Origin: Escherichia coli
Lineage (GTDB): Bacteria > Pseudomonadota > Gammaproteobacteria > Enterobacterales > Enterobacteriaceae
DNA: 64,000 nt
Reading direction: 5' to 3' (one strand)
Assembly: GCF_965641715.1 (NCBI RefSeq)
Contig: NZ_OZ282453.1
Shown: positions 14,996-30,569 of the stretch, piece by piece
Position numbering within the stretch: position 1 is the first letter of the stretch
Layout of the letters: the number at the start of each line of letters is the position of its first letter
Program-made: the position numbers and the translations under genes
The notes under the pieces: model-generated
The model's input: the letters and a program-made list of their open reading frames with translations, nothing else
What the model was told of the DNA's origin: nothing
The model's database searches: none

Positions 14996-15253
14996 GTTAT
15001 TTACCTTACTTTACGCGCGCGTATCTCTGGCAACATCACTGCAGGATAGCGGTCAATTTACCTCCTCAAACGCAACGCAAACCTAGAACGGCTTCGGCCT
15101 ATGATTAACAAATTACTCTATGGATTTTGGTTTGCAGGAAGGCAGCAAGTGAGTGAATCCCCGGGAGCTTACAACAGTAAGTGTCAGAGGTGAACGAACG
15201 CAGCTGCCGCACCTGTAAGCCAAAAGACGACGAGTAAAATGCCAGGTTTTACT

Positions 15254-17404
15254 ATGGATACGAAAAAACTATTCAAGCACATACCCTGGGTGATTCTCGG
15301 AATCATCGGTGCATTCTGCCTCGCGGTAGTTGCATTACGTCGGGGGGAGCACGTCAGCGCCCTGTGGATCGTGGTCGCCTCTGTGTCGGTGTATCTGGTG
15401 GCGTATCGCTACTACAGTCTGTACATCGCCCAGAAGGTGATGAAACTCGACCCCACACGCGCGACGCCTGCGGTTATTAACAACGACGGTCTGAACTACG
15501 TTCCGACCAACCGTTACGTGTTGTTTGGTCACCACTTCGCCGCTATCGCCGGTGCTGGTCCGCTGGTTGGTCCGGTGCTCGCCGCGCAGATGGGCTACCT
15601 GCCTGGCACGCTGTGGCTGCTGGCGGGGGTAGTGCTGGCCGGTGCGGTACAGGACTTTATGGTGCTGTTTATCTCCTCTCGCCGTAACGGCGCATCTCTC
15701 GGTGAGATGATCAAAGAAGAGATGGGGCCAGTACCGGGGACTATCGCGCTGTTTGGCTGTTTTTTAATCATGATCATCATCCTCGCCGTTCTGGCGCTGA
15801 TTGTGGTTAAAGCCCTGGCCGAAAGTCCGTGGGGTGTCTTCACCGTTTGCTCAACCGTACCAATTGCGCTGTTTATGGGTATCTACATGCGCTTTATCCG
15901 TCCGGGGCGTGTGGGTGAAGTCTCTGTCATTGGTATCGTGCTGCTGGTTGCCTCTATCTACTTCGGTGGCGTGATTGCTCACGATCCGTACTGGGGTCCG
16001 GCACTGACCTTTAAAGACACCACCATTACCTTCGCGCTGATTGGCTATGCGTTTGTTTCCGCACTGCTGCCGGTGTGGCTGATCCTCGCACCGCGCGATT
16101 ATCTGGCAACCTTCCTGAAAATCGGCGTTATCGTCGGCCTGGCGCTGGGTATCGTGGTGCTGAACCCGGAACTGAAAATGCCTGCGATGACCCAGTACAT
16201 TGACGGTACTGGCCCGCTGTGGAAAGGCGCTCTGTTCCCGTTCCTGTTCATCACCATCGCCTGTGGTGCGGTATCTGGCTTCCACGCGCTGATCTCTTCC
16301 GGTACGACGCCGAAACTGCTGGCTAACGAAACCGACGCGCGTTTCATTGGCTACGGCGCAATGCTGATGGAGTCCTTCGTGGCGATTATGGCGCTGGTTG
16401 CTGCGTCCATCATCGAACCGGGTCTTTACTTCGCGATGAATACCCCGCCTGCGGGCCTTGGCATCACCATGCCTAACCTGCATGAAATGGGTGGCGAGAA
16501 CGCGCCGATCATCATGGCGCAGCTGAAAGACGTTACCGCACACGCGGCGGCGACCGTCAGCTCCTGGGGCTTCGTGATTTCGCCAGAGCAGATCCTGCAA
16601 ACCGCGAAAGACATTGGTGAGCCTTCTGTCCTGAACCGTGCAGGTGGTGCGCCGACGCTGGCGGTAGGTATCGCTCATGTGTTCCACAAAGTGCTGCCGA
16701 TGGCTGACATGGGCTTCTGGTATCACTTCGGTATTCTGTTCGAAGCCCTGTTCATCCTGACCGCGCTGGATGCGGGTACCCGTTCTGGCCGCTTTATGCT
16801 GCAAGACCTGCTGGGTAACTTCATCCCGTTCCTGAAAAAAACCGACTCTCTGGTTGCCGGTATCATCGGTACTGCGGGCTGTGTGGGTCTGTGGGGCTAC
16901 CTGCTGTATCAGGGCGTGGTCGATCCGCTGGGCGGCGTTAAGAGCCTGTGGCCGCTGTTCGGTATCTCCAACCAGATGCTGGCAGCCGTAGCGCTGGTAC
17001 TGGGCACCGTTGTGCTGATTAAGATGAAGCGCACCCAATACATCTGGGTAACTGTTGTTCCGGCTGTATGGCTGCTTATCTGCACCACCTGGGCGCTGGG
17101 TCTGAAACTGTTCAGTACCAACCCGCAGATGGAAGGCTTCTTCTACATGGCAAGCCAGTACAAAGAGAAGATTGCTAACGGTACTGACCTGACGGCGCAG
17201 CAGATTGCCAACATGAACCACATCGTTGTGAACAACTACACCAACGCAGGCCTGAGTATTCTGTTCCTGATTGTGGTGTACAGCATCATCTTCTACGGTT
17301 TCAAAACCTGGCTTGCGGTGCGTAACAGCGACAAACGTACTGACAAAGAAACACCGTACGTTCCAATCCCGGAAGGCGGCGTGAAGATCTCTTCGCACCA
17401 CTAA
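15254..17404 (+). CDS. btsT: Pyruvate/H+ symporter, CstA family
   Basis: ORF 15239..17404; likely start MDTKKLFKHIPW (716 aa); polytopic CstA-type transporter; synteny with yjiX-yjiA. Confidence 0.9.
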   Translation: MDTKKLFKHIPWVILGIIGAFCLAVVALRRGEHVSALWIVVASVSVYLVAYRYYSLYIAQKVMKLDPTRATPAVINNDGLNYVPTNRYVLFGHHFAAIAGAGPLVGPVLAAQMGYLPGTLWLLAGVVLAGAVQDFMVLFISSRRNGASLGEMIKEEMGPVPGTIALFGCFLIMIIILAVLALIVVKALAESPWGVFTVCSTVPIALFMGIYMRFIRPGRVGEVSVIGIVLLVASIYFGGVIAHDPYWGPALTFKDTTITFALIGYAFVSALLPVWLILAPRDYLATFLKIGVIVGLALGIVVLNPELKMPAMTQYIDGTGPLWKGALFPFLFITIACGAVSGFHALISSGTTPKLLANETDARFIGYGAMLMESFVAIMALVAASIIEPGLYFAMNTPPAGLGITMPNLHEMGGENAPIIMAQLKDVTAHAAATVSSWGFVISPEQILQTAKDIGEPSVLNRAGGAPTLAVGIAHVFHKVLPMADMGFWYHFGILFEALFILTALDAGTRSGRFMLQDLLGNFIPFLKKTDSLVAGIIGTAGCVGLWGYLLYQGVVDPLGGVKSLWPLFGISNQMLAAVALVLGTVVLIKMKRTQYIWVTVVPAVWLLICTTWALGLKLFSTNPQMEGFFYMASQYKEKIANGTDLTAQQIANMNHIVVNNYTNAGLSILFLIVVYSIIFYGFKTWLAVRNSDKRTDKETPYVPIPEGGVKISSHH

Positions 17405-17453: not shown

Positions 17454-17657
17454 ATGTTTGGTAACTTAGGACAGGCAAAAAAATATCTCGGCCAGGCGGC
17501 GAAGATGTTGATTGGCATTCCAGACTACGACAACTACGTCGAGCATATGAAGACCAACCATCCCGACAAGCCGTACATGAGCTATGAAGAATTCTTCCGC
17601 GAACGCCAGAACGCGCGCTACGGCGGCGATGGTAAAGGCGGTATGCGCTGTTGTTAA
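17454..17657 (+). CDS. yjiX: YbdD/YjiX-family small protein (DUF466)
   Basis: 67-aa ORF directly downstream of the CstA-family transporter, the conserved pairing. Confidence 0.85.
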
Positions 17658-17667
17658 TGGAGAGAGC

Positions 17668-18624
17668 ATGAACCCGATTGCAGTTACCCTACTCACCGGT
17701 TTTTTAGGCGCGGGAAAAACCACCCTGCTGCGCCATATTCTTAACGAACAACACGGCTACAAGATTGCCGTGATTGAAAACGAATTCGGCGAAGTCTCCG
17801 TTGATGATCAACTGATTGGCGACCGCGCCACGCAGATCAAAACGCTGACCAACGGCTGCATCTGCTGTTCGCGCTCCAACGAGCTGGAGAACGCGCTACT
17901 CGACCTGCTGGATAATCTCGACAAGGGCAATATTCAGTTCGATCGTCTGGTCATTGAATGCACCGGCATGGCCGATCCTGGCCCGATTATTCAGACCTTT
18001 TTCTCCCATGAGATTTTATGCCAGCGCTACCTGCTGGACGGCGTGATTGCGCTGGTGGATGCGGTACATGCCGATGAGCAGATGAACCAGTTCACCATCG
18101 CCCAGTCCCAGGTTGGCTACGCCGACCGTATTCTGCTGACTAAAACCGACGTCGCAGGCGAAGCAGAAATACTGCGTGAACGTCTGGCACGCATCAACGC
18201 CCGTGCACCGGTCTACACCGTCACCCACGGCGACATCGACCTGGGCCTGCTGTTCAACACTAACGGTTTTATGCTGGAAGAAAACGTCGTCAGCACCAAA
18301 CCGCGTTTCCACTTTATCGCGGATAAACAAAACGATATTTCGTCGATTGTGGTGGAACTGGATTACCCGGTAGATATCAGCGAAGTTTCCCGCGTGATGG
18401 AAAACCTGCTGCTGGAATCGGCGGATAAACTGCTGCGTTACAAAGGGATGCTGTGGATTGACGGCGAACCTAATCGCCTGCTGTTCCAGGGCGTCCAGCG
18501 CCTCTACAGCGCCGACTGGGACCGCCCATGGGGCGATGAAAAACCGCATAGCACGATGGTGTTTATCGGGATTCAGTTGCCGGAGGAAGAGATTCGGGCG
18601 GCGTTTGCGGGGTTGAGGAAGTAA
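17668..18624 (+). CDS. yjiA: CobW/COG0523-family P-loop GTPase (metal chaperone-like)
   Basis: Start MNPIAVTLLTGFLGAGKTTL (Walker A), CICCS metal-binding motif; 318 aa. Confidence 0.9.
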   Translation: MNPIAVTLLTGFLGAGKTTLLRHILNEQHGYKIAVIENEFGEVSVDDQLIGDRATQIKTLTNGCICCSRSNELENALLDLLDNLDKGNIQFDRLVIECTGMADPGPIIQTFFSHEILCQRYLLDGVIALVDAVHADEQMNQFTIAQSQVGYADRILLTKTDVAGEAEILRERLARINARAPVYTVTHGDIDLGLLFNTNGFMLEENVVSTKPRFHFIADKQNDISSIVVELDYPVDISEVSRVMENLLLESADKLLRYKGMLWIDGEPNRLLFQGVQRLYSADWDRPWGDEKPHSTMVFIGIQLPEEEIRAAFAGLRK

Positions 18625-18710
18625 TCGTGAAAGGTTGAGTGTAAAGCAGCTCAATGCCCCATTTAGCAGTGAGGGGGGAAACAGAACGACGTGCTCCCCT
18701 CCGCTAAGTT

Positions 18711-18902
18711 TTATTGCGCGTGAATACCTGGATCTGGCAAAAAATTGCCGCGTTTGGCGTCAGACCATGCTTCGCTACCAGAAGCAGGAATGTCGCTGTA
18801 ATCAATGTCTTCGTCGGATTTATTAACCAAAGCCATGAGTTCAGCTTCTTGCTGCACATCAAGTGTGTAGAGTGTGCCCCGTTTATGTTTAACCATGCTC
18901 AT
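18711..18902 (-). CDS. Small acidic ORF of uncertain status, possibly a truncated antitoxin-like fragment
   Basis: 63-aa ORF 39 nt downstream of the membrane-protein gene on the same strand; carries an EDIDYSDIP motif that resembles, from memory, the N-terminal segment of BrnA/DUF4415-type antitoxins; no RHH domain follows. Confidence 0.35.
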   Translation of the reverse strand: MSMVKHKRGTLYTLDVQQEAELMALVNKSDEDIDYSDIPASGSEAWSDAKRGNFLPDPGIHAQ

Positions 18903-18941
18903 TTATGACCAGAACCTTTACGATTTAATTATAAAGATGAC

Positions 18942-19910
18942 TTATTTCAGCCATCCAGGCACGTTATATTCTGAGACATTCTCAATGGAATATGCATCTC
19001 TCCTGTCAGAACCTTTCTTACACTTCAACTCATTGAACCCCCATTTACCCTCTCTATTGGAATAAAATACAGTATATTTATCAGTATTAAACCCGAAATA
19101 TCTTTCATCCGGACGTGAAATATTCAACTCTCCACATTTAACCTGACTGCGCCATTCAAAATCTATGGTGCTTTTTAAAACGTAGTACGAAATATTCTCT
19201 ACATTTTTTGAAGCAAAAACTACTAAAATAGTAGATACTATAAATGCTCCGGCAAGTATAAATAACCTATACACACTTAATTTAGTCCCCAGAGTTAAAA
19301 AAGCAAAATAGATAATAAGTTGCATCAACATGAAGAAAATCAACAAAAAAGCCATCCCTTTCCAGAAATACTCAACCCATGGTGATAGTGTGATATTTAG
19401 ATTACTCAAACTTAAAAATAAACTGGAAGAAAAACTACTTGAGAATAAATATATAATTGGTATGACAGCTAAAGTCATAGACCTAATAATCATTAATTTT
19501 TTATTATTTTTAAATTCCAACTCTAATATAATAAAAACACCTCCCAGAAAAACAAATACTGAAAAAGCACTAAAAACGTATACAGAGACACTGACTGGAA
19601 AAATATTAATTGAAAGCACAAAAAACAAAAATATAAACCATGCAATAAGTGAACACCAGGCAGCACAACTATTCAAACTGTTTTTATTACTGAACTTGAC
19701 AAAATACCCCATATATTCTGTAATGCGATTTTCTTCCACTAATGCATAAAGAAGAATACCAACAAAGCACAGAGATAAAATAATATCTTTCCACAGATAT
19801 TTATAAGGGAGAAGTATAAAACCAAGGAGTAGATAAATTAGCAGAATGACATCTAATGCCTTAGTACAAAAATATTGTTTCACTCCTTGCAAGAACCGAA
19901 CATTCTCCAT
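18942..19910 (-). CDS. Uncharacterised polytopic membrane protein (about 7 TM helices plus ~90-aa C-terminal soluble domain)
   Basis: ORF 18942..19943; ATG at 19910 preceded by GGAGAAGGA SD; very AT-rich; occupies the slot between yjiA and hsdR where K-12 carries mrr. Confidence 0.7.
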   Translation of the reverse strand: MENVRFLQGVKQYFCTKALDVILLIYLLLGFILLPYKYLWKDIILSLCFVGILLYALVEENRITEYMGYFVKFSNKNSLNSCAAWCSLIAWFIFLFFVLSINIFPVSVSVYVFSAFSVFVFLGGVFIILELEFKNNKKLMIIRSMTLAVIPIIYLFSSSFSSSLFLSLSNLNITLSPWVEYFWKGMAFLLIFFMLMQLIIYFAFLTLGTKLSVYRLFILAGAFIVSTILVVFASKNVENISYYVLKSTIDFEWRSQVKCGELNISRPDERYFGFNTDKYTVFYSNREGKWGFNELKCKKGSDRRDAYSIENVSEYNVPGWLK

Positions 19911-20050
19911 ATGAATCCTTCTCCAGCTATTGATGAAACTCAAGAATACCTTTAAAACAGTGACTTAACGCTGATAATACTCTTTGAACAGATGAATTCA
20001 TCTATTTTTCTGTGTAGAATTTGCGCATCGCATTTAGATGAGAACACCCC

Positions 20051-22483
20051 ATGGCGGAACTGAACCTAAGTAACCTGACGGAAGCAGACATCATTACCAA
20101 ATGCGTTATGCCAGCCATTCTCAATGCAGGCTGGGACAACACAACGCAAATCAGACAGGAGGTCAAACTCCGGGACGGTAAAGTCATCGTACGTGGTAAA
20201 GTTGCGGCACGCAGAACGGTAAAATCTGCTGACATCGTGCTGTACCACAAGCCAGGCATTCCCTTAGCCGTGATTGAAGCAAAAGCCAACAAACATGAAA
20301 TTGGCAAAGGGATGCAACAGGGCATTGAATATGCGCGCCTGCTGGACGTTCCTTTTGTTTTTGCCACCAATGGTGATGGCTTTATCTTCCGCGATGCCAC
20401 CGCAGCTGAAGGTGAATGCCTTGAAAAGCAAATAACGCTGGATGACTTCCCCTCCCCCGCTGAACTCTGGCAAAAATTCTGCCTCTGGAAAGGATACACA
20501 CAAGCTCAGCTTCCGGTGATTACTCAGGACTATTACGACGATGGTAGCGGTAAATCGCCTCGTTATTATCAACTTCAGGCAATCAACAAAACCATTGAAG
20601 CCGTCTCCAACGGGCAAAACCGCGTTCTGCTGGTCATGGCGACCGGAACAGGGAAAACCTATACCGCATTCCAGATCATCTGGCGCCTGTGGAAATCAAA
20701 AAATAAAAAACGCATTCTGTTCCTTGCCGATCGCAACATTCTGGTCGACCAAACCAAAAATAATGATTTCCAGCCATTTGGTACGGCAATGACCAAAGTC
20801 AGCGGACGCACCATTGATCCCGCTTATGAAATTCACCTCGCGCTCTATCAGGCTATAACTGGCCCGGAGGAAGACCAAAAAGCGTTTAAACAAGTCGCAC
20901 CAGATTTCTTCGATCTGATCGTGATCGACGAATGCCATCGCGGCAGCGCATCCGAAGACAGCGCCTGGCGAGAGATCCTTGATTATTTCAGTTCCGCCAC
21001 CCAAATTGGCTTAACCGCCACGCCAAAAGAGACGCATGAAGTCTCCAGCACGGATTACTTCGGCGATCCGGTTTACGTCTACTCGCTAAAAGAAGGGATC
21101 GAAGACGGCTTCCTCGCCCCTTATAAAGTTGTCCGTGTTGATATTGATGTTGATCTGCAAGGCTGGCGCCCAACCAAAGGGCAAACTGACTTAAACGGCG
21201 AAGTGATCGACGATCGTATCTATAACCAGAAAGATTTCGATCGCACGATGGTAATCGACGAACGCACAGAACTGGTTGCCAGAACCATTACCGACTACCT
21301 CAAGCGCACCAATCCGATGGATAAAACCATCGTCTTCTGTAACGACATCGATCATGCAGAACGTATGCGCCGCGCCCTGGTTAATCTCAACCCGGAGCAG
21401 GTGAAAAAGAACGACAAATACGTCATGAAAATCACCGGCGATGATGAAATTGGCAAAGCTCAGTTGGATAACTTCATCAACCCGAAAAAACCGTACCCGG
21501 TTATCGCGACCACTTCAGAGCTGATGACCACCGGTGTGGATGCTAAAACCTGCAAACTGGTAGTACTGGACCAGAACATCCAGTCGATGACCAAATTCAA
21601 GCAGATTATCGGTCGTGGTACACGCATCGACGAACGTTACGGCAAACTCTGGTTTACCATCCTCGACTTTAAAAAAGCCACCGAACTGTTTGCCGATGAG
21701 CGTTTCGATGGCATTCCCGAAAAAGTCATGGATACCACACCAGAGGATATCGCCGATCCAGACTCTGATTTTGAAGAGAAACTCGAAGAAATCAGCGAAC
21801 ATGTCGACGAACAGGTAACAGGCGTTGATGAACCGCCTGCGCCACCATACCAGGTTAAAGATACCGATGATGTCGGCCCACTTCCGGAAGAAGACGAGAA
21901 GAAAATCCGCAAGTTTCACGTCAACGGTGTAGCGGTGGGCGTTATTGCCCAGCGTGTTCAGTATTACGACGCCGACGGTAAACTGGTTACCGAATCCTTT
22001 AAAGATTACACTCGCAAAACACTGCTCAAAGAATATGCCTCGCTGGATGACTTTACCCGCAAGTGGCAGGACGCCGATCGCAAAGAAGCGATCATTCACG
22101 AGCTGGAGCAACAGGGGATCATCTGGGAAGTACTGGCAGAAGAAGTCGGTAAAGATCTCGACCCATTCGACATGCTTTGCCACGTAGTGTATGGTCAGCC
22201 GCCGTTAACCCGCAAAGAGCGCGCCGAGAACGTGCGCAAGCGGAACTACTTCACAAAATACTCTGAAGCAGCGCAAGCCGTGCTCGATAATCTGCTGGAT
22301 AAATACGCCGATGCGGGCGTACAGGAGATCGAAAGTATTCAGGTGCTGAAACTTAAGCCATTCGACAGCATGGGCACCTTACCGGAGATTATTAAAACCG
22401 GATTTGGCGACCGTAACGGGTATAATCAGGCGCTCAGCGAGCTGGAAAACGAAATCTACCAATTACCGCCCCGCTCTGCTTAA
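20051..22483 (+). CDS. hsdR: Type I restriction enzyme R subunit
   Basis: 810 aa; N-terminal PD-(D/E)xK-like motif (D...IEAK), SF2 helicase motif I (MATGTGKT) and motif II (DECHR). Confidence 0.9.
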
Positions 22484-22549
22484 CAACTCTCTTTTGTGCC
22501 TTCTGCAACCATCATGTTGCAGAAGGCCTTGTTTTTCATGGAATACAAC

Positions 22550-24019
22550 ATGTCTATCAGCTCAGTAATCAAATCATTACAAGATATTATGCGCAAAGAT
22601 GCCGGTGTGGACGGCGATGCGCAGCGTCTCGGTCAGCTCTCCTGGCTGCTATTTTTGAAAATCTTCGATGCCCAGGAAGAGGCGCTGGAACTGGAGCAGG
22701 ATAACTATCAATATCCGATCCCACAGCGTTATTTGTGGCGCAGTTGGGCCGCCAACGCGCAGGGCATTACCGGTGATTCCCTGCTGGAATTCGTTAATGA
22801 TGATCTGTTCCCGGCGTTGAAAAACCTCACTGCGCCTATCGATAAAAACCCACGCGGCTACGTGGTAAAGCAGGCGTTCAGCGATGCCTATAACTATATG
22901 AAAAACGGTACGCTACTGCGTCAGGTGATCAACAAGCTGAACGAAATTGACTTTACCAGCGCCAGCGAACGCCATCTGTTTGGTGATATTTACGAACAGA
23001 TCCTTAAAGATCTGCAATCTGCGGGCAATGCTGGCGAATTCTATACTCCACGCGCCGTCACTCGCTTTATGGTGGATCGCGTCGATCCGAAACTCGGCGA
23101 ATCCATTATGGACCCGGCCTGCGGTACGGGCGGTTTTCTTGCCTGCGCATTTGATCATGTAAAGAACAAATACGTGAAGAGCGTCGCCGATCATCAGACG
23201 CTGCAACAACAGATCCACGGTGTTGAGAAAAAACAGCTTCCGCACCTGCTGGCGACCACCAATATGCTGCTGCACGGCATTGAAGTACCGGTACAAATTC
23301 GTCACGACAACACCCTGAACAAACCGCTTTCCTCCTGGGATGAACAACTGGATGTCATTGTTACCAACCCGCCGTTTGGTGGCACGGAAGAAGATGGTAT
23401 TGAGAAGAACTTTCCAGCAGAGATGCAAACCCGCGAAACGGCGGATTTGTTCCTGCAACTGATTGTGGAAGTACTGGCGAAAAACGGTCGCGCGGCGGTG
23501 GTATTGCCGGATGGCACACTATTTGGCGAAGGCGTTAAAACCAAAATCAAAAAGCTACTTACCGAAGAGTGCAACCTGCATACCATCGTGCGCTTACCGA
23601 ATGGTGTGTTTAACCCCTATACCGGCATTAAAACCAACCTGTTGTTCTTTACCAAAGGTCAGCCAACCAAAGAGATTTGGTTCTATGAGCATCCGTATCC
23701 GGCGGGCGTGAAAAACTACAGCAAAACCAAGCCGATGAAGTTTGAAGAGTTTCAGGCGGAGATCGACTGGTGGGGTAACGAGGCCGATGGTTTTGCCAGC
23801 CGCGTCGAGAATGAGCAAGCGTGGAAAGTCAGCATTGATGACGTGATTGCGCGTAACTTCAATCTGGATATTAAAAACCCACATCAGGCGGAAACCGTCA
23901 GCCATGATCCGGACGAACTGTTAGCGCAGTATGCAAAGCAACAGGCGGAGATCCAGACGCTGCGTAATCAACTGCGCGATATTCTCGGCGCTGCGCTGTC
24001 TGGCAAGGAGGTTAACTGA
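22550..24019 (+). CDS. hsdM: Type I restriction-modification N6-adenine methyltransferase M subunit
   Basis: ORF 22496..24019; AdoMet motif DPACGTGGFL and catalytic NPPFGG; start is uncertain (Met at 22538 or 22550). Confidence 0.9.
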   Translation: MSISSVIKSLQDIMRKDAGVDGDAQRLGQLSWLLFLKIFDAQEEALELEQDNYQYPIPQRYLWRSWAANAQGITGDSLLEFVNDDLFPALKNLTAPIDKNPRGYVVKQAFSDAYNYMKNGTLLRQVINKLNEIDFTSASERHLFGDIYEQILKDLQSAGNAGEFYTPRAVTRFMVDRVDPKLGESIMDPACGTGGFLACAFDHVKNKYVKSVADHQTLQQQIHGVEKKQLPHLLATTNMLLHGIEVPVQIRHDNTLNKPLSSWDEQLDVIVTNPPFGGTEEDGIEKNFPAEMQTRETADLFLQLIVEVLAKNGRAAVVLPDGTLFGEGVKTKIKKLLTEECNLHTIVRLPNGVFNPYTGIKTNLLFFTKGQPTKEIWFYEHPYPAGVKNYSKTKPMKFEEFQAEIDWWGNEADGFASRVENEQAWKVSIDDVIARNFNLDIKNPHQAETVSHDPDELLAQYAKQQAEIQTLRNQLRDILGAALSGKEVN

Positions 24020-25776
24020 TGAGTGTGGAAAAGCTGATCGTTGATCATATGGAAACCTGGACCTCGGCGTTGCAAACCCGTTCCACCGCCGGGCGCGGCA
24101 GCTCCGGTAAGATTGATTTGTATGGTATTAAGAAATTGCGTGAGCTGATTCTGGAACTGGCGGTGCGCGGTAAACTGGTGCCGCAGGATCCGCATGATGA
24201 ACCGGCGTCGGAGCTGCTGAAGCGTAATGAAGAACGGAAAAAAGAATTAGCGCGCAATAATGGTATGAAAACCACAGCAAGCACTAATATCCATGGAAAT
24301 GAATATTATATCGATACCCCCGAAAAGTGGTCATGGATAAGACTTGGTAATTTAGCTAAATTCATCGATTACCGAGGAAAAACACCACATAAAAAAGAAA
24401 ATGGTATAAGGCTTATAACAGCAAAAAATATCAGAAAGGGCTATATTGATCTCAATCCAGAAGAGTTCATATCTGAAGAAGATTACATATCATGGATGAC
24501 AAGAGGCTTTCCTAAATGTGGTGATATTTTATTCACAACTGAAGCACCACTGGGGAATGCAGCGATTATTGATTTAGACGGAAAGTTCGCTCTTGCTCAA
24601 CGTTCTATCTGTTTTCAATGGCATACTCCAGAGATAAGCCCTTTTATGCTTATTCAAATCCTGGCGATCCCCTTCCAGTCACAACTAAGTGACAAATCTA
24701 CAGGCATGACCGCAACAGGAATAAAAGCGTCTAAGTTAAAAGAGATCCCTGTTATTTTACCACCTTACCAAGAACAAATACGTATTGTATCCAAAGTACA
24801 GGAGTTCATGTCCCTATGTGACCAACTGGAACAGCAATCCCTGACCAGTCTGGACGCACATCAGCAACTGGTTGAAACCCTGTTGGAAACACTTACAGAC
24901 AGCCAAAACGCCGAGGAACTGGCTGAAAACTGGGCGCGTATTAGCGAGCATTTCGACACCCTATTTACCACTGAAGCCAGCGTGGATGCGTTAAAACAGA
25001 CCATTCTGCAACTGGCCGTAATGGGTAAACTTGTGCCGCAGGATCCGAATGACGAACCAGCCTCTGAACTGCTCAAACGAATTGCGCAGGAAAAAGCTCA
25101 ACTGGTGAAAGAAGGGAAAATAAAAAAACAAAAACCGTTGCCGCCAATTAGCGATGAGGAAAAGCCGTTTGAACTGCCGGAAGGTTGGGAGTGGTGTCGA
25201 TTGGGTTCTATTTATAATTTTTTAAATGGATATGCCTTTAAAAGTGAGTGGTTTACCTCTGTCGGTTTACGTTTATTGCGGAATGCTAACATTGCTCATG
25301 GAGTTACCAATTGGAAAGATGTTGTACATATACCAAATGACATGATATCCGATTTTGAAAATTATATTTTGTCAGAAAATGATATTGTTATTTCATTAGA
25401 CAGACCAATTATTAATACCGGGTTAAAATATGCTATCATTAGCAAATCAGATTTACCCTGTTTACTGCTCCAACGAGTAGCAAAATTTAAAAATTATGCA
25501 AACACTGTGTCTAACTCCTTCTTGACAATATGGTTGCAATCTTATTTCTTCATAAATTCAATTGATCCTGGAAGAAGTAATGGAGTTCCACATATATCTA
25601 CGAAACAGTTAGAGATGACACTATTTCCTCTTCTACCGCAAAGTGAACAAGATCGTATTATTTCAAAAACGGATGAATTAATACAAACCTGTAATAAACT
25701 GAAATATATTATCAAAACCGCCAAACAAACCCAACTGCACCTTGCAGACGCACTGACTGACGCAGCGATAAACTAA
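24019..25776 (+). CDS. hsdS: Type I restriction-modification specificity subunit with two target-recognition domains
   Basis: 585 aa; start overlaps hsdM stop; two AT-rich variable regions flanked by a duplicated conserved segment (LAV(R/M)GKLVPQDP(H/N)DEPASELLKR) near 24130-24230 and 25000-25085. Confidence 0.9.
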   Translation: MSVEKLIVDHMETWTSALQTRSTAGRGSSGKIDLYGIKKLRELILELAVRGKLVPQDPHDEPASELLKRNEERKKELARNNGMKTTASTNIHGNEYYIDTPEKWSWIRLGNLAKFIDYRGKTPHKKENGIRLITAKNIRKGYIDLNPEEFISEEDYISWMTRGFPKCGDILFTTEAPLGNAAIIDLDGKFALAQRSICFQWHTPEISPFMLIQILAIPFQSQLSDKSTGMTATGIKASKLKEIPVILPPYQEQIRIVSKVQEFMSLCDQLEQQSLTSLDAHQQLVETLLETLTDSQNAEELAENWARISEHFDTLFTTEASVDALKQTILQLAVMGKLVPQDPNDEPASELLKRIAQEKAQLVKEGKIKKQKPLPPISDEEKPFELPEGWEWCRLGSIYNFLNGYAFKSEWFTSVGLRLLRNANIAHGVTNWKDVVHIPNDMISDFENYILSENDIVISLDRPIINTGLKYAIISKSDLPCLLLQRVAKFKNYANTVSNSFLTIWLQSYFFINSIDPGRSNGVPHISTKQLEMTLFPLLPQSEQDRIISKTDELIQTCNKLKYIIKTAKQTQLHLADALTDAAIN

Positions 25777-25800
25777 TTCCCTCGCCCTCAAAAAACCAAT

Positions 25801-25822
25801 AAAGCGGCTAAATAGCCGCTTT
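25801..25822. terminator. Hairpin after hsdS
   Basis: AAAGCGGCTA / TAGCCGCTTT inverted repeat preceded by an A-run and followed by TTATT. Confidence 0.55.
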
Positions 25823-25903
25823 ATTCACATCACCAAAAATTATATTTCACGCTAAACTTCATCTTATTTTCATTAATTTTTAGCTGGACTTCCCCTGTAT
25901 TTA

Positions 25904-25925: not shown

Positions 25926-26002
25926 AGCGCGGTGCGGATGTGCGCCAACACACCCGCACCGCTAATCACAATCCCTATTTCTAAGGAATAGTAATCATGA
26001 CT
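25926..26002 (-). ncRNA. symR: Antisense sRNA SymR, placed by homology expectation only
   Basis: SymR is known to be encoded antisense to the symE 5' end; an imperfect 14-bp hairpin (GCGGTGCGGATGTG ... CACACCCGCACCGC) lies at 25929-25962; exact ends not determinable from sequence. Confidence 0.35.
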
Positions 26003-26338
26003 GACACGCATTCTATTGCACAACCGTTCGAAGCAGAAGTCTCCCCGGCAAATAACCGTCAATTAACCGTGAGTTATGCGAGCCGCTACCCGGATTACAG
26101 CCGTATTCCCGCCATCACCCTGAAAGGTCAGTGGCTGGAAGCCGCCGGTTTTGCCACTGGCACGGCGGTAGATGTCAAAGTGATGGAAGGCTGTATTGTC
26201 CTCACCGCCCAACCCGCCGCCGCCGAAGAGAGCGAACTGATGCAGTCACTACGCCAGGTGTGCAAACTGTCGGCGCGTAAACAAAAGCAGGTGCGGGAAT
26301 TTATTGGGGTGATTGCGGGTAAACAGAAAGTCGCCTGA
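25997..26338 (+). CDS. symE: SOS-induced toxin SymE (type I TA toxin, AbrB-fold)
   Basis: 113-aa [37 protein letters not shown]... recognised as SymE; downstream of hsdS as in K-12. Confidence 0.9.
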
Positions 26339-26384: not shown

Positions 26385-28478
26385 TTATACCAAGGCGCTC
26401 TCCATCTGTTTTTCAAATGCCTGACGAATTAATCCCATAATGTAAGGAAGTTGTGCGAGGTCACTGAAACCAATTTCCACATCACCATTACCCCAGCGCC
26501 CAACATTTGTCACATCTTTGGCAATACCTTTCGGATCGACCAGTTCATGAAACTGCATATTAAGCGACAATCGCAGTCGGCTTTTTTGCGGCACAACATC
26601 AACAAAATTCGTTTCCGCTTTAAACGCAATATATAGCTTCAATACTTCCTGCGTGATCCCTGCGTCCAGGCGCATAACTTCATCGCGAAGATGATCGAAT
26701 AACACCCGGCTATGCGAACCATCAGCAAGAAAAGGATAATCACTCAGGCTGTAACTGGTTTTGTTTTCAGGCTGTCCCCGATAAACAGCTAAAACCTCTT
26801 CAGGAAGAGAAGGCGCTTGCCAGACCTGAACCGCGAGATCGGCCAGACGATCGGCTCGGGCGTGAATGGCGGCTTCATCCCATTTTTCGCACTGTCCAAG
26901 ACCGATATTCAAATAGAGCGGGCTATGCTTAAAGCCGTCTTCAATATCGCGTTTTTCTGCGAAAGGTCTGTCACTGTAACGGGAGTTATAGCGCGTTAAA
27001 GTGAGATTCCCCAACGTATGCAACAGTTCTTTATGAATACGCTGCCAGTCGCTTCCCAGCTCTTCGCGCCATTTAGCCGACAAATTTTCGTTCTGCGGCA
27101 TAATATGTTCAATCGTAAACTCTTCCACGCGCTCTCTGCGTTTATCGTTTTCCAGTCGTCGTAACCAGTAGCTGCGACTACGGAAGTTATAGAGATCGCG
27201 AACTTTTAATTCCCGTTTAAATTCATCATCGTTGGGGAAACGACGATATGAAGGTAGATTCAAAAAATGTACCTGAATACTTTCCAGATAATTTTCTTTA
27301 TTAATAACTTTATAAAAAGTGGCAAATGTCTTGTTCAAAGAATTTGTCGGAATTGCACATACTGCACGGCGGAAAACATAAGATTCAATTAAACGAATTA
27401 TGCTCAGGAAATCTTCGTGAGACAAAACGCCATTTTTATAGTCATGATAAAGCGCCAGTAAGAAAGGATACACCACATCGACCTTTAACTCGCGCAAATC
27501 CTGAAAAGCCGTAGCAAGCAATTTGTCACTTTCTTTTCCCAATGCCATTGCACAGTAATACTCCGCGTAGATATGAATATCTTCAACCAGCCGATCTACG
27601 CCTTTTTCAGCAACACTCTGGCTGCGGGCATGGAGTTTAAATGCCTCATAGACTTCATCTGTCCGAGGGATCTCCCCCGTTTTTACCGTCAGATAATGAC
27701 GCATAAAACTGTCAAAATATTCGCTGTAACCTTGCTGACCAAAGGCGACTTCCATTGGACGCCAGTGATCTTCATACAACCGGGTTTGATGCTCTGGTTC
27801 GAGGCCCATCAGAATAAAATTGCGCACCAGATCGGCCTGACTTAACGCCTTACCGGTGGAGTTCATACTTTCAAAAATCAGTTGCGGATTATCCTGACCA
27901 CGATTAAGCGCCACATCGACAATTAATAACTTTGCTAACCCACGACATAAGGGGATCAAGTCATCACCGAGTTTGGCAATTTGTTCATCAAAGAAAGTAA
28001 AGTTTTCCATTATTCGATGGGAATAGTTTTCTGGCATTGGTCTTTGTTTTATTAACGCCAGTAAACTGTCTTTATCAGTCTCGGTCAGCAGTAATTTAAA
28101 ACCTTTCTCGCCGGACTCATAAGGATTGAGCAAATAATAATTACGCAATTTCATTGCCGAAAAGCCATCAAAAACTTCGTCTTCGCCAAGATGGCGCGAT
28201 AAAGCCTCAATCAGCAACATTGCGGTCGTCAGCCGCTGCTGACCATCAATGACCAGCAACGGAGAAATACCAGAAACCTGATACAATCCCTGCTCTATAT
28301 AAACAACCGAACCGATAAAATGCGCTGATATATCGTCACGCTTTCCTGCACGAATGATGTCGTCCCAAAGTTGCCGACATTGTTGCCCGGTCCATGAATA
28401 AGTCCGTTGATAAATGGGAATAACAAACTGCTGCGAACGTTTTAAAAAATCGAGTAGGCGAGCTTCTGTAGCTTTCAT
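26385..28478 (-). CDS. Single-chain DUF262/DUF1524 protein, GmrSD-family type IV restriction endonuclease candidate
   Basis: 697 aa; N-terminal DGQQR motif (DUF262 / ParB-like NTPase); C-terminal His-Me finger-like EHIMPQ motif (DUF1524); sits where K-12 carries yjiT-yjiV-mcrCB. Confidence 0.8.
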   Translation of the reverse strand: MKATEARLLDFLKRSQQFVIPIYQRTYSWTGQQCRQLWDDIIRAGKRDDISAHFIGSVVYIEQGLYQVSGISPLLVIDGQQRLTTAMLLIEALSRHLGEDEVFDGFSAMKLRNYYLLNPYESGEKGFKLLLTETDKDSLLALIKQRPMPENYSHRIMENFTFFDEQIAKLGDDLIPLCRGLAKLLIVDVALNRGQDNPQLIFESMNSTGKALSQADLVRNFILMGLEPEHQTRLYEDHWRPMEVAFGQQGYSEYFDSFMRHYLTVKTGEIPRTDEVYEAFKLHARSQSVAEKGVDRLVEDIHIYAEYYCAMALGKESDKLLATAFQDLRELKVDVVYPFLLALYHDYKNGVLSHEDFLSIIRLIESYVFRRAVCAIPTNSLNKTFATFYKVINKENYLESIQVHFLNLPSYRRFPNDDEFKRELKVRDLYNFRSRSYWLRRLENDKRRERVEEFTIEHIMPQNENLSAKWREELGSDWQRIHKELLHTLGNLTLTRYNSRYSDRPFAEKRDIEDGFKHSPLYLNIGLGQCEKWDEAAIHARADRLADLAVQVWQAPSLPEEVLAVYRGQPENKTSYSLSDYPFLADGSHSRVLFDHLRDEVMRLDAGITQEVLKLYIAFKAETNFVDVVPQKSRLRLSLNMQFHELVDPKGIAKDVTNVGRWGNGDVEIGFSDLAQLPYIMGLIRQAFEKQMESALV

Positions 28479-28574
28479 TCTGACGTCTTTCCGTGAAACG
28501 ATGATTTCGCAATAATAACCACTTCCTTGTGGAGGTTATAGAGAAATCCTGTTTATCCGCGACGAACATACCCC

Positions 28575-28739
28575 TCACTCCACATCCTCCCTGCGTAACC
28601 CAATATCCCTCAACCGCTCATCACTCATCTGCTGTAACACTCGTCGGGTCTGCATTTGCCACCGCCAACGCCTCATCGCCTGCCAGAGTTGCACAAGTCT
28701 GATAAACGGCGTTTTGGCTTTGTTTTCGTGAAATTCCAT
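28575..28739 (-). CDS. yjiS: DUF1127 small protein
   Basis: 54-aa ORF MEFHENKAKTPFIRLVQLWQAMRRWRWQMQTRRVLQQMSDERLRDIGLRREDVE translated by hand from the minus strand; below the ORF-track length cutoff; divergent from yjiR; coordinates +/-2. Confidence 0.7.
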   Translation of the reverse strand: MEFHENKAKTPFIRLVQLWQAMRRWRWQMQTRRVLQQMSDERLRDIGLRREDVE

Positions 28740-28915
28740 CTGCTGCCTCCTCATCTTTCAGAGGCTTCATCATCCGCCTTCTGGCAGTTCACAATACAGA
28801 TGCAAATATTAGTTTTATTTAACATACAGACAGGTTAAAACAGCATCTGCATCCGGTTTTTTAGCTTCATCTGTACCGGTTTTTCTCTCTGTATGGTCTA
28901 AATAAGGAATACAGC

Positions 28916-30328
28916 ATGACGCGTTATCAACATCTGGCAACTCTGCTTGCCGAGCGGATTGAGCAAGGGCTGTATCGTCACGGGGAGAAATTGCCGTCGG
29001 TGCGCAGCTTAAGTCAGGAGCACGGCGTCAGCATCAGCACCGTGCAGCAGGCGTATCAGACGCTGGAGACGATGAAGCTCATCACTCCGCAGCCGCGTTC
29101 GGGGTATTTTGTCGCACAACGTAAAGCCCAGCCGCCAGTGCCGCCGATGACGCGTCCGGTGCAGCGCCCGGTGGAAATTACCCAGTGGGATCAGGTACTG
29201 GATATGCTGGAGGCGCATAGCGACAGTTCCATTGTTCCGTTAAGCAAAAGCACGCCGGATGTCGAAACGCCCAGCCTGAAACCACTCTGGCGGGAGCTAA
29301 GCCGGGTGGTACAGCATAATCTGCAAACCGTTCTCGGTTATGACTTGCTAGCCGGTCAGCGGGTATTGCGCGAGCAGGTTGCCCGCCTGATGCTCGACAG
29401 CGGCTCGGTGGTCACCGCCGATGACATCATTATCACCAGCGGCTGCCATAACTCGATGTCGCTGGCGTTAATGGCGGTGTGTAAACCGGGCGATATTGTC
29501 GCGGTCGAATCCCCCTGTTATTACGGTTCGATGCAGATGCTGCGCGGCATGGGCGTGAAAGTGATTGAAATCCCAACCGATCCAGAAACTGGCATCAGCG
29601 TTGAAGCGCTGGAACTGGCGCTGGAACAGTGGCCGATTAAAGGCATCATTTTGGTGCCAAACTGTAATAATCCGCTGGGATTTATTATGCCGGACGCGCG
29701 CAAACGGGCCGTTCTCTCTCTCGCTCAGCGTCATGATATTGTGATTTTTGAAGATGATGTCTACGGCGAACTGGCAACGGAGTATCCGCGCCCGCGGACC
29801 ATTCATTCATGGGATATCGACGGGCGAGTGCTGTTGTGCAGCTCGTTCAGTAAAAGTATTGCTCCAGGCCTGCGCGTGGGTTGGGTCGCACCGGGGCGTT
29901 ATCACGATAAACTGCTGCATATGAAATACGCCATCAGCAGCTTTAATGTGCCGTCCACGCAAATGGCGGCAGCAACGTTTGTGCTGGAAGGTCACTATCA
30001 TCGCCATATCCGGCGGATGCGGCAGATCTATCAGCGCAATTTGGCGCTTTATACCTGCTGGATACGGGAATATTTTCCCTGCGAAATCTGTATTACGCGC
30101 CCGAAAGGCGGATTTTTACTGTGGATAGAATTGCCTGAACAGGTCGATATGGTCTGCGTCGCGCGGCAGCTGTGCCGCATGAAAATCCAGGTGGCGGCAG
30201 GCTCGATTTTCTCAGCTTCCGGCAAATACCGTAACTGCCTGCGCATCAACTGCGCTTTGCCGCTCAGCGAAACCTATCGCGAAGCACTGAAGCAAATTGG
30301 CGAGGCCGTGTATCAGGCAATGGAATGA
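28916..30328 (+). CDS. yjiR: MocR-type regulator (GntR HTH fused to PLP-dependent aminotransferase-like domain)
   Basis: 470-aa ORF with N-terminal GntR-type HTH and large class I aminotransferase-like domain. Confidence 0.85.
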   Translation: MTRYQHLATLLAERIEQGLYRHGEKLPSVRSLSQEHGVSISTVQQAYQTLETMKLITPQPRSGYFVAQRKAQPPVPPMTRPVQRPVEITQWDQVLDMLEAHSDSSIVPLSKSTPDVETPSLKPLWRELSRVVQHNLQTVLGYDLLAGQRVLREQVARLMLDSGSVVTADDIIITSGCHNSMSLALMAVCKPGDIVAVESPCYYGSMQMLRGMGVKVIEIPTDPETGISVEALELALEQWPIKGIILVPNCNNPLGFIMPDARKRAVLSLAQRHDIVIFEDDVYGELATEYPRPRTIHSWDIDGRVLLCSSFSKSIAPGLRVGWVAPGRYHDKLLHMKYAISSFNVPSTQMAAATFVLEGHYHRHIRRMRQIYQRNLALYTCWIREYFPCEICITRPKGGFLLWIELPEQVDMVCVARQLCRMKIQVAAGSIFSASGKYRNCLRINCALPLSETYREALKQIGEAVYQAME

Positions 30329-30446
30329 ATTCGAATCAGTGGCGAGGCCCCTGATTTCCTCTCACGAATCGCCTGTGACTCGTTTTATCTTTGCAGGGGC
30401 ATCACCACGTTCCAGCATGGCTTAGGCAAAGTGTGCTTTGTTCATA

Positions 30447-30545
30447 CCGGATGCGGCGTGAACGCCTTATCCGGCTTACAAATCGCGCAAATTCAATAGA
30501 TTGCAGAGGTAATGTAGGTCTGATAAGCGTAGCACATCAGGCAGC
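30447..30545. repeat. BIME: two REP units in opposite orientation
   Basis: CCGGATGCGGCGTGAACGCCTTATCCGGCTTAC and GTAGGTCTGATAAGCGTAGCACATCAGGCAG. Confidence 0.8.
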
Positions 30546-30569
30546 TTTGCGTTTGTCATCAGTCTCTGA

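Follow-up and report, generated by a model that had tools for sequence, protein, structure and literature searches.

The closest described relatives of the locus analyzed here are EcoAI of E. coli 15T- and EcoCFTI of E. coli CFT073, both with the recognition site GAG(N7)GTCA. EcoCFTI has been assigned to type IB and was found by restriction assay to restrict plasmids carrying this site (PMC8287963), and its R and M subunits are 99% identical to those of other type IB systems (PMC2481252, Table 1). Membership in type IB has been defined by genetic complementation and antibody cross-reaction with the EcoAI subunits, by allelism with the hsd genes of the enteric immigration control region (PMC3874165, PMC2481252), and by HsdR and HsdM identities above about 90% to established members (PMC2481252). 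Type IB specificity subunits carry a long N-terminal conserved region ahead of the first target recognition domain (TRD1), in the order D2-S1-D1-S2 (PMC3874165, PMC2481252). All of them also share a direct repeat whose copies begin near aa 50 and 325 (PMC2481252). Which 3′ half-site is read depends on the C-terminal TRD (PMC3874165), and the two methylated adenines are separated by an interval of 9 bp (PMC3874165, Table 1).

Within this family there are precedents for the type of TRD reassortment described below, with a predictable hybrid specificity: EcoAI and EcoEI share the half-site GAG, and an engineered hybrid of the StySKI N-terminal and EcoAI C-terminal parts showed hybrid specificity (PMC3874165). 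The TRDs of EcoEI, EcoAI and StySKI have assigned half-sites (GAG, CGAT, ATGC, GTCA), a point in which the TRD1 reported here differs from them. The type IB system EcoAO83I/Eco377I, GGA(N8)ATGC, occupies the same E. coli locus, carries this HsdS repeat as well (about aa 50 and 325; PMC2481252), and was also defined by a new TRD combination; its TRDs are unlike those found here, and its site was determined experimentally. EcoKI, AAC(N6)GTGC, shares the allelic position and the overall R2M2S1 logic but represents a separate family, type IA, with a 464-aa HsdS of permuted domain order and a 529-aa HsdM.

The hsd locus and its restriction and modification subunits

The window, i.e., the whole 64,000-nt stretch of E. 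coli DNA analyzed, contains three consecutive hsd genes; these and all other features described below lie on the + strand. The gene hsdR (20051–22483) encodes an 810-aa type IB restriction and translocase subunit with an N-terminal PD-(D/E)xK nuclease, an SF2 motor and an EcoEI_R_C tail. It is followed by hsdM (22550–24019), encoding a 489-aa N6-adenine methyltransferase subunit, and by hsdS (24019–25776), whose start overlaps the hsdM stop and which encodes a 585-aa specificity subunit. The lengths of the three ORFs are far above chance, and the genes are intact; the positions and sizes given in a preliminary description of this DNA (HsdR 810, HsdM about 489 and HsdS 585 aa) proved exact to the base. 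Upstream of the hsd genes lies yjiA, and downstream are symR/symE, a GmrSD-family gene and yjiR, in the same layout as in CFT073. [quoted passage not shown]

HsdR comprises the Pfam domains HSDR_N, ResIII, Helicase_C and EcoEI_R_C (PF08463, E 6e-37). It scores 1192 bits against the NCBIfam equivalog model NF046051 'EcoAI/FtnUII' (cut-off 550), covering model positions 1–768 of 768, and 1703 bits against PADLOC REase_I, with residues 1–810 aligned end to end to model positions 1–807 of 807; the nearest solved structure is 3h1t (E 4e-158). Both the nuclease motif (D61...E76-A-K78) and the motor motifs (GTGKT199, DECH293, TATP322, GRGTR521) are intact, in agreement with the PD-(D/E)xK and SF2 motifs noticed earlier. 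The protein had also been called unusually short, which is not the case: members of the EcoAI family normally have a full length of 810 aa, as shown by the end-to-end matches to both family profiles and by the HsdR proteins of CFT073, EC42405 and 06-00048, each likewise of 810 aa. The CFT073 subunit, that of EcoCFTI, is identical at 805 of 810 positions (99.4%), and the five substitutions all fall outside the catalytic motifs.

HsdM matches Pfam HsdM_N and N6_Mtase (E 8e-94), PADLOC MTase_I from end to end, and the PDB entry 3ufb (E 4e-123). Its AdoMet motif DPACGTGGF188 and catalytic motif NPPF273 are intact, and it is identical to the CFT073 protein at 488 of 489 positions (99.8%) and to those of EC42405 and 06-00048 at all 489. 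An alternative GTG start at 22496 would give a 507-aa product in place of the 489 aa read from the ATG at 22550; RefSeq uses the ATG in identical loci. The 66-nt hsdR–hsdM spacer contains a terminator-like hairpin followed by a T-run (22498–22537), with a perfect 12-bp stem and a 6-nt loop, folding at −21.8 kcal/mol (z = −4.3; equalled by none of 200 shuffles). Its position inside the GTG-started ORF favors the ATG at 22550 as the start of hsdM. A consensus scan for an hsdM promoter returned 14 sites, with no excess over shuffled sequence (14.0 ± 4.0).

The system belongs to type IB (the EcoAI family): HsdR and HsdM are more than 90% identical to those of EcoCFTI, HsdR exceeds the EcoAI/FtnUII cut-off and has the EcoEI_R_C domain, and HsdS has the type IB layout described below. 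The EcoAI-like rather than EcoKI-like affiliation, tentatively suggested in the preliminary description, was supported by every test run. A 589-aa E. coli HsdS identical to that of CFT073 at 587 of 589 positions bears the UniRef name 'EcoAI specificity'. Among complete E. coli genomes, about 19% have these hsdRM genes.

A mosaic specificity subunit

HsdS shows two Pfam Methylase_S stretches, and its residues 1–585 align to positions 1–589 of 589 of PADLOC Specificity_I. The N-terminal conserved region (24019–24242; aa 1–75; GC 0.531) is homologous to all three comparison alleles, those of CFT073, EC42405 and 06-00048. It is followed by TRD1 (24243–24804), a central conserved region (24805–25194; aa ~263–392), TRD2 (25195–25722) and a short C-terminal conserved tail (25723–25776), delimited by alignment to E. 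coli alleles. Both TRDs are AT-rich, as had been claimed, with a GC content of 0.377 in TRD1 and 0.318 in TRD2; the conserved hsdS segments have 0.48–0.53, and hsdR and hsdM have 0.50. The duplicated segment noticed alongside them is equally real, being an 82-nt internal direct repeat with copies at 24148–24229 (aa 44–70, LILELAVRGKLVPQDPHDEPASELLKR) and 25003–25084 (aa 329–355). The suggestion that it serves as the substrate for TRD shuffling fared less well: the copies are 79% identical and share an exact run of 15 nt at most, so the repeat by itself is a poor recombination substrate.

The two TRDs have different affinities. Together with the conserved regions, the whole of TRD2 is identical at the protein level to the EcoCFTI/EcoAI type (100% aa; 99.6% nt to CFT073), and 46 of the 5426 complete E. 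coli genomes searched carry this TRD2. TRD1, in contrast, shows no DNA-level homology to CFT073 over 24243–24804 and is unrelated to the N-terminal TRD of EcoCFTI and EcoAI, whose HsdS has 589 aa, although these systems share the locus and gene order. Of the 5426 complete genomes, only two have close TRD1 relatives: those of 06-00048 (CP015229) and of EC42405 (CP043414), a cryptic clade I strain, with 99.0–99.3% DNA and 99–100% protein identity. These strains also share HsdM (100%) and HsdR (99.4–99.5%), whereas the C-terminal TRD of each differs.

HsdS is a natural hybrid of the TRD1-type and TRD2-type alleles. The crossover can be placed within 24805–25194, because no other stretch is homologous to both parental types (to CFT073 from 24805, and to EC42405 and 06-00048 up to 25194); the central region differs from both at scattered positions, so that the interval is no narrower. 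The mosaic suggests that alleles have recombined through their long conserved regions, and the locus cleanly illustrates, in nature, how type I specificity evolves by reassortment of TRDs through such regions.

Across the 5426 complete E. coli genomes, TRD1 and TRD2 are never paired in this way. The allele persists in a lineage: at least 36 E. coli contigs encode exactly this HsdS protein, and 100% identity extends over 7.7 kb of the locus in two draft genomes. The assemblies GCA_036952445.1 and GCA_021646925.1 are among those matching the locus at 100%. An HsdS ortholog, 91% identical at the amino acid level and probably from another genus, has the same TRD pairing.

Predicted recognition sequence and function

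Since TRD2 is identical to that of EcoCFTI and the C-terminal TRD sets the 3′ half of the site, TRD2 is predicted to read GTCA (TGAC). TRD1 is unrelated to the corresponding EcoCFTI/EcoAI domain, and the 5′ half-site should therefore not be GAG. We consider it highly probable (about 0.9) that the type IB (EcoAI-family) restriction-modification system encoded here is complete and probably functional, that its HsdS is a hybrid, and that it recognizes 5′-[new half-site]-N7 or N8-GTCA-3′ rather than the EcoAI site. Its R and M subunits are essentially those of EcoCFTI. By analogy with EcoAI and EcoCFTI, the M2S1 complex would methylate one adenine in each half of the bipartite site, with TRD1 reading the different 5′ half. 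The R2M2S1 complex would bind unmethylated sites, translocate DNA by its SF2 motor, and use its N-terminal PD-(D/E)xK nuclease to cut at a distance. The analysis demonstrates that the genes are intact, to which family they belong, and that HsdS is a mosaic; enzymatic activity, the GTCA half-site and the N7 or N8 spacer length are all inferred here.

The near identity of R, M and TRD2 to EcoCFTI might suggest an isoschizomer of EcoAI and EcoCFTI with the site GAG(N7)GTCA. We regard this as highly improbable, the C-terminal TRD being of the EcoAI type and the N-terminal TRD not: besides the missing DNA homology, the best protein match of TRD1 to EcoAI-type alleles reaches only ~26–27% identity and falls on their other TRD; for the EcoAI-named allele P0152, BLASTP gave 27% at best, on the other TRD of that protein. 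Two unrelated TRDs might conceivably read the same triplet, though this would not be expected.

Matches of TRD1 to solved TRDs in the PDB were remote, with 25–30% identity at most, too distant for a half-site to be transferred. A protein search with TRD1 alone returned proteins of less than about 357 aa with at most 70% identity, from Psychrobacter and cyanobacteria, and no characterized relative; its candidate list seems limited by protein length, for the 99%-identical HsdS proteins of E. coli were absent from it. A full-length HsdS search with per-domain BLAST recovered many TRD1 carriers, none with a named specificity, and type IB HsdS proteins of Klebsiella and Raoultella carry TRD1 at 90–93% identity. 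In the literature, no published specificity was found for HsdS of EC42405 or 06-00048 by strain name or protein accession, and the motifs N7GTCA and TGACN7 led to EcoAI itself every time. The TRD1 half-site was also not found in a 2026 E. coli pan-methylome paper, in which type I motifs are excluded.

The suspicion that the specificity may be unusual thus stands for TRD1, which is rare and for which no characterized relative was found, but not for TRD2, a known GTCA reader. The chances seem about even that the allele confers a recognition sequence new for type I enzymes, combining a new 5′ half-site with GTCA, and that the TRD1 lineage is mobile between enterobacterial genera and between N- and C-terminal TRD positions, outpacing the divergence of the hsd operon. 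The novelty is limited to a new specificity allele in an otherwise ordinary, intact system. The enzyme family, locus, repeat and shuffling process are all textbook, no new mechanistic question is opened, and the significance beyond bookkeeping is small, the exact proteins being already in NCBI under the correct family name. Knowledge of the family and of the GTCA half-site can still help to predict barriers to transformation and to phage and plasmid entry in the carrier lineage.

Another reading is that of an inactive relic, in which the hybrid HsdS fails to assemble or the genes are silent, so that neither methylation nor restriction takes place. The terminator-like hairpin ahead of hsdM would fit silent genes, as would the failure of the consensus scan to locate an hsdMS promoter; the hairpin, however, lies within a stretch 98.6% identical to the functional CFT073 locus. 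The three ORFs with their catalytic motifs and the conserved HsdS scaffolding are intact, several assemblies carry the allele unchanged, and the TRD pairing persists in the 91%-identical ortholog, which itself argues that the hybrid HsdS is active. Loss of function is accordingly judged quite unlikely, even though a hybrid S subunit need not be active.

A probably functional type IB system with a hybrid HsdS is also favored over a type IA (EcoKI-like) one, the allele present at this locus in K-12. The hsd genes do occupy the chromosomal position of hsd in K-12, with symE adjacent. Against this, HsdR matches the type IA model NF008521 (PRK11448) only in part, at 217 bits against a cut-off of 729, HsdM and HsdS resemble those of EcoKI only locally (140 bits, and a weak 47 bits), and genes of the CFT073 type are less than 40% identical to type IA genes (PMC8287963). 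No test placed the subunits in type IA with a characterized specificity, and this assignment is rejected with near certainty.

Phase variation, in which hsdS copies or the two halves of the internal repeat would recombine to switch the specificity, is dismissed with equal firmness. Such a shufflon would have extra hsdS copies or inverted repeats next to a recombinase gene. Blastn and tblastn searches of the whole window with hsdS returned only hsdS itself and its internal repeat, with no second copy or fragment, and no recombinase occurs among the ORFs examined beside hsdS. The repeat that might suggest such switching is direct and is the structural repeat of all type IB HsdS, and the CFT073 system has been termed non-phase-variable (PMC8287963).

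The hsd locus and its type IB affiliation

The three genes lie on the plus strand in one orientation, exactly where the preliminary description had placed them: hsdR at 20051-22483 (810 aa), hsdM at 22550-24019 (489 aa) and hsdS at 24019-25776 (585 aa), the hsdS ATG overlapping the hsdM stop codon. The hsdM start was set to the ATG at 22550 after the RefSeq annotation of identical loci; an alternative ORF of 507 aa is counted from a GTG at 22496. Family profiles identify all three as real genes beyond doubt: HsdR contains HSDR_N, ResIII, Helicase_C and EcoEI_R_C domains, HsdM contains HsdM_N and N6_Mtase (E 8e-94), and two stretches of HsdS match Methylase_S, with end-to-end matches to the PADLOC type I models. 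The nuclease and helicase motifs previously claimed for HsdR were located (D61...E76-A-K78, GTGKT199, DECH293, TATP322, GRGTR521), and HsdM carries DPACGTGGF188 and NPPF273.

HsdR scored 1192 bits over the whole NCBIfam equivalog 'EcoAI/FtnUII family type I restriction enzyme subunit R' (cut-off 550 bits), whereas the type IA endonuclease model gave 217 bits, below its cut-off of 729. The proteins of strain CFT073 are identical to HsdR at 805 of 810 positions and to HsdM at 488 of 489. Its enzyme, EcoCFTI, is described as a non-phase-variable type IB system, less than 40% identical to type IA genes, with methylation-dependent restriction of GAG(N7)GTCA plasmids (PMC8287963). UniRef applies the name 'EcoAI specificity' to an HsdS identical to that of CFT073 at 587 of 589 residues. 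In contrast, EcoKI S (464 aa, 47 bits) and EcoKI M (529 aa, 140 bits) are remote from their counterparts in the window. The locus also agrees with type IB on both criteria of PMC2481252. The equivalog score, the near-identity to CFT073 and this agreement bear out the earlier suggestion of a type IB rather than EcoKI-like enzyme and support an ordinary type IB R-M system; HsdR is not "unusually short", 810 aa being the normal type IB size. Locus DNA at least 80-90% identical, with the same annotation, was present in 1008 of 5426 complete E. coli genomes (~1 in 5).

A mosaic hsdS allele

Protein and DNA alignments divided hsdS into five segments, all on the plus strand. An N-terminal region (24019-24242) common to all type IB alleles compared precedes the N-terminal target recognition domain, TRD1 (24243-24804), which was found only in strains EC42405 and 06-00048 (99.0-99.3% nucleotide identity, 2/5426 genomes), the former a cryptic clade I strain (PMC10100065). 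A central region homologous to every allele compared (24805-25194) separates it from the C-terminal TRD2 (25195-25722), shared with CFT073-type alleles (99.6% nucleotide and 100% amino acid identity, 46/5426 genomes), and a conserved tail (25723-25776) closes the gene. Both domains are AT-rich, as had been noted (GC 0.377 and 0.318, versus 0.48-0.53 in conserved hsdS); hsdR and hsdM stand at ~0.50. At a coverage of at least 80%, the whole gene was found in none of the 5426 complete genomes. Other assemblies carry the allele as well: NCBI lists the identical protein, under the name E. coli 'restriction endonuclease subunit S', on at least 36 contigs, and in two draft assemblies the match to the window is 100% across 7.7 kb. 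Separately, the best of the 5426 genomes is only 98.1% identical over the 19.6-kb flank 26385-46000, which suggests that complete genomes include few close relatives of the source lineage.

A phase-variable shufflon was rejected, because the 64-kb window holds no second hsdS copy. The duplicated segment proposed as a substrate for TRD shuffling is a real 82-nt direct repeat (24148-24229 and 25003-25084, 79% identical). The two copies match exactly over no more than 15 nt in a row, which argues against that role; this is the structural repeat of type IB HsdS. A more likely origin of the mosaic is recombination between different alleles by way of the conserved hsdS regions at the N-terminus (224 nt) and in the centre (390 nt). 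The exchange point between the parental alleles must fall inside 24805-25194, where scattered polymorphism allows no finer position.

The same TRD pairing occurs in an ortholog (TRD1 93%, TRD2 88%, overall 91% protein identity) whose hsdRMS-symE locus, L007, is 85.5% identical to the window in DNA, distant enough to suggest another genus of enterobacteria. Between L007:4001-5758 and 24019-25776, the TRD1 segment retains 91-95% DNA identity, more than the 80-90% of hsdR, hsdM and the conserved hsdS regions. This excess suggests exchange of the domain between genera, or strong selection on it. The closest relatives of TRD1 are uncharacterised HsdS proteins of Klebsiella and Raoultella (90-93% identical), followed by equally uncharacterised ones of Cronobacter, Enterobacter and Serratia (~80%); among solved TRD structures, the best matches were only remote. 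A TRD1-like domain (70% identical) also sits in the C-terminal position (aa 371-551) of two HsdS proteins that otherwise resemble type IB, P0242 and P0247, one of them from Kosakonia; the TRD1 lineage therefore occurs in both positions.

Predicted recognition site and activity

Each TRD of a type I HsdS governs one half of the site, the N-terminal domain the 5' half and the C-terminal domain the 3' half; the EcoAI site is [GAG]~[TGAC], EcoEI shares GAG with another 3' half, and an engineered StySKI-N/EcoAI-C hybrid displayed hybrid specificity (PMC3874165). Since TRD2 is identical to that of EcoAI/EcoCFTI, it should read GTCA as the 3' half-site. GAG is very unlikely as the 5' half-site, because TRD1 has no DNA homology to CFT073 TRD1 and its best protein matches in EcoAI-type alleles (~26-27% identity) fall on their other TRD. 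The predicted site would be 5'-[unassigned half-site]-N7 or N8-GTCA-3', its methylated adenines set apart by the interval of 9 bp typical of type IB; the spacer depends on the adenine position within the new half-site, as with GAG N7 versus GCA or GGA N8 (Table 1, PMC3874165). Of the unusual specificity once suggested, the TRD2 half thus gives way to a known type and the TRD1 half stands as rare; the allele probably has a new, half-predictable specificity. We infer an active system from the intact ORFs and motifs, R and M subunits nearly identical to those of a functional enzyme, with substitutions that spare the motifs, and retention of the TRD pair in a distant ortholog.

Surroundings and transcription signals

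The locus is in the E. coli immigration control region. Along the window, a CstA-family gene (15239-17404) and yjiA (17584-18624) are followed by a variable AT-rich slot (18700-19950) before hsdR; it holds DUF262 in CFT073 and an AAA ATPase with DUF262 in EC42405. Here the slot carries, on the minus strand (18711-19943), a 333-aa ORF (GC ~0.30) that looks like a multi-pass membrane protein and a 63-aa ORF whose 06-00048 counterpart is annotated 'antitoxin'; neither matched Pfam, NCBIfam or PADLOC. On the 3' side of hsdRMS comes the type I toxin-antitoxin pair found beside hsdS in E. coli: symE (25997-26338, plus strand) and, antisense to it and overlapping its 5' end, SymR RNA (25926-26002, minus strand; Rfam RF01809, 93 bits). 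Adjoining symE and followed by yjiR is an intact GmrSD-family gene (26385-28478, minus strand; 697 aa; GmrSD_N, GmrSD_C, DUF5655; PADLOC Orf5/HEC-06-like), which in CFT073 and 06-00048 is split into a 387-aa ORF and a pseudogene fragment.

Between hsdR and hsdM, a hairpin with a perfect 12-bp stem and a T-run (22498-22537, plus strand; -21.8 kcal/mol, z = -4.3) looks like an intrinsic terminator of hsdR. Beginning 14 nt past the hsdR stop and ending 12 nt 5' of the hsdM ATG, it leaves no space for an intergenic hsdMS promoter. A second 12-bp palindromic hairpin (AATAAAGCGGCT...AGCCGCTTTATT, 25798-25825), 22 nt past the hsdS stop, has an A-run on one side, hence a T-run on the opposite strand, and may serve as a terminator separating hsdS from the convergent symR.
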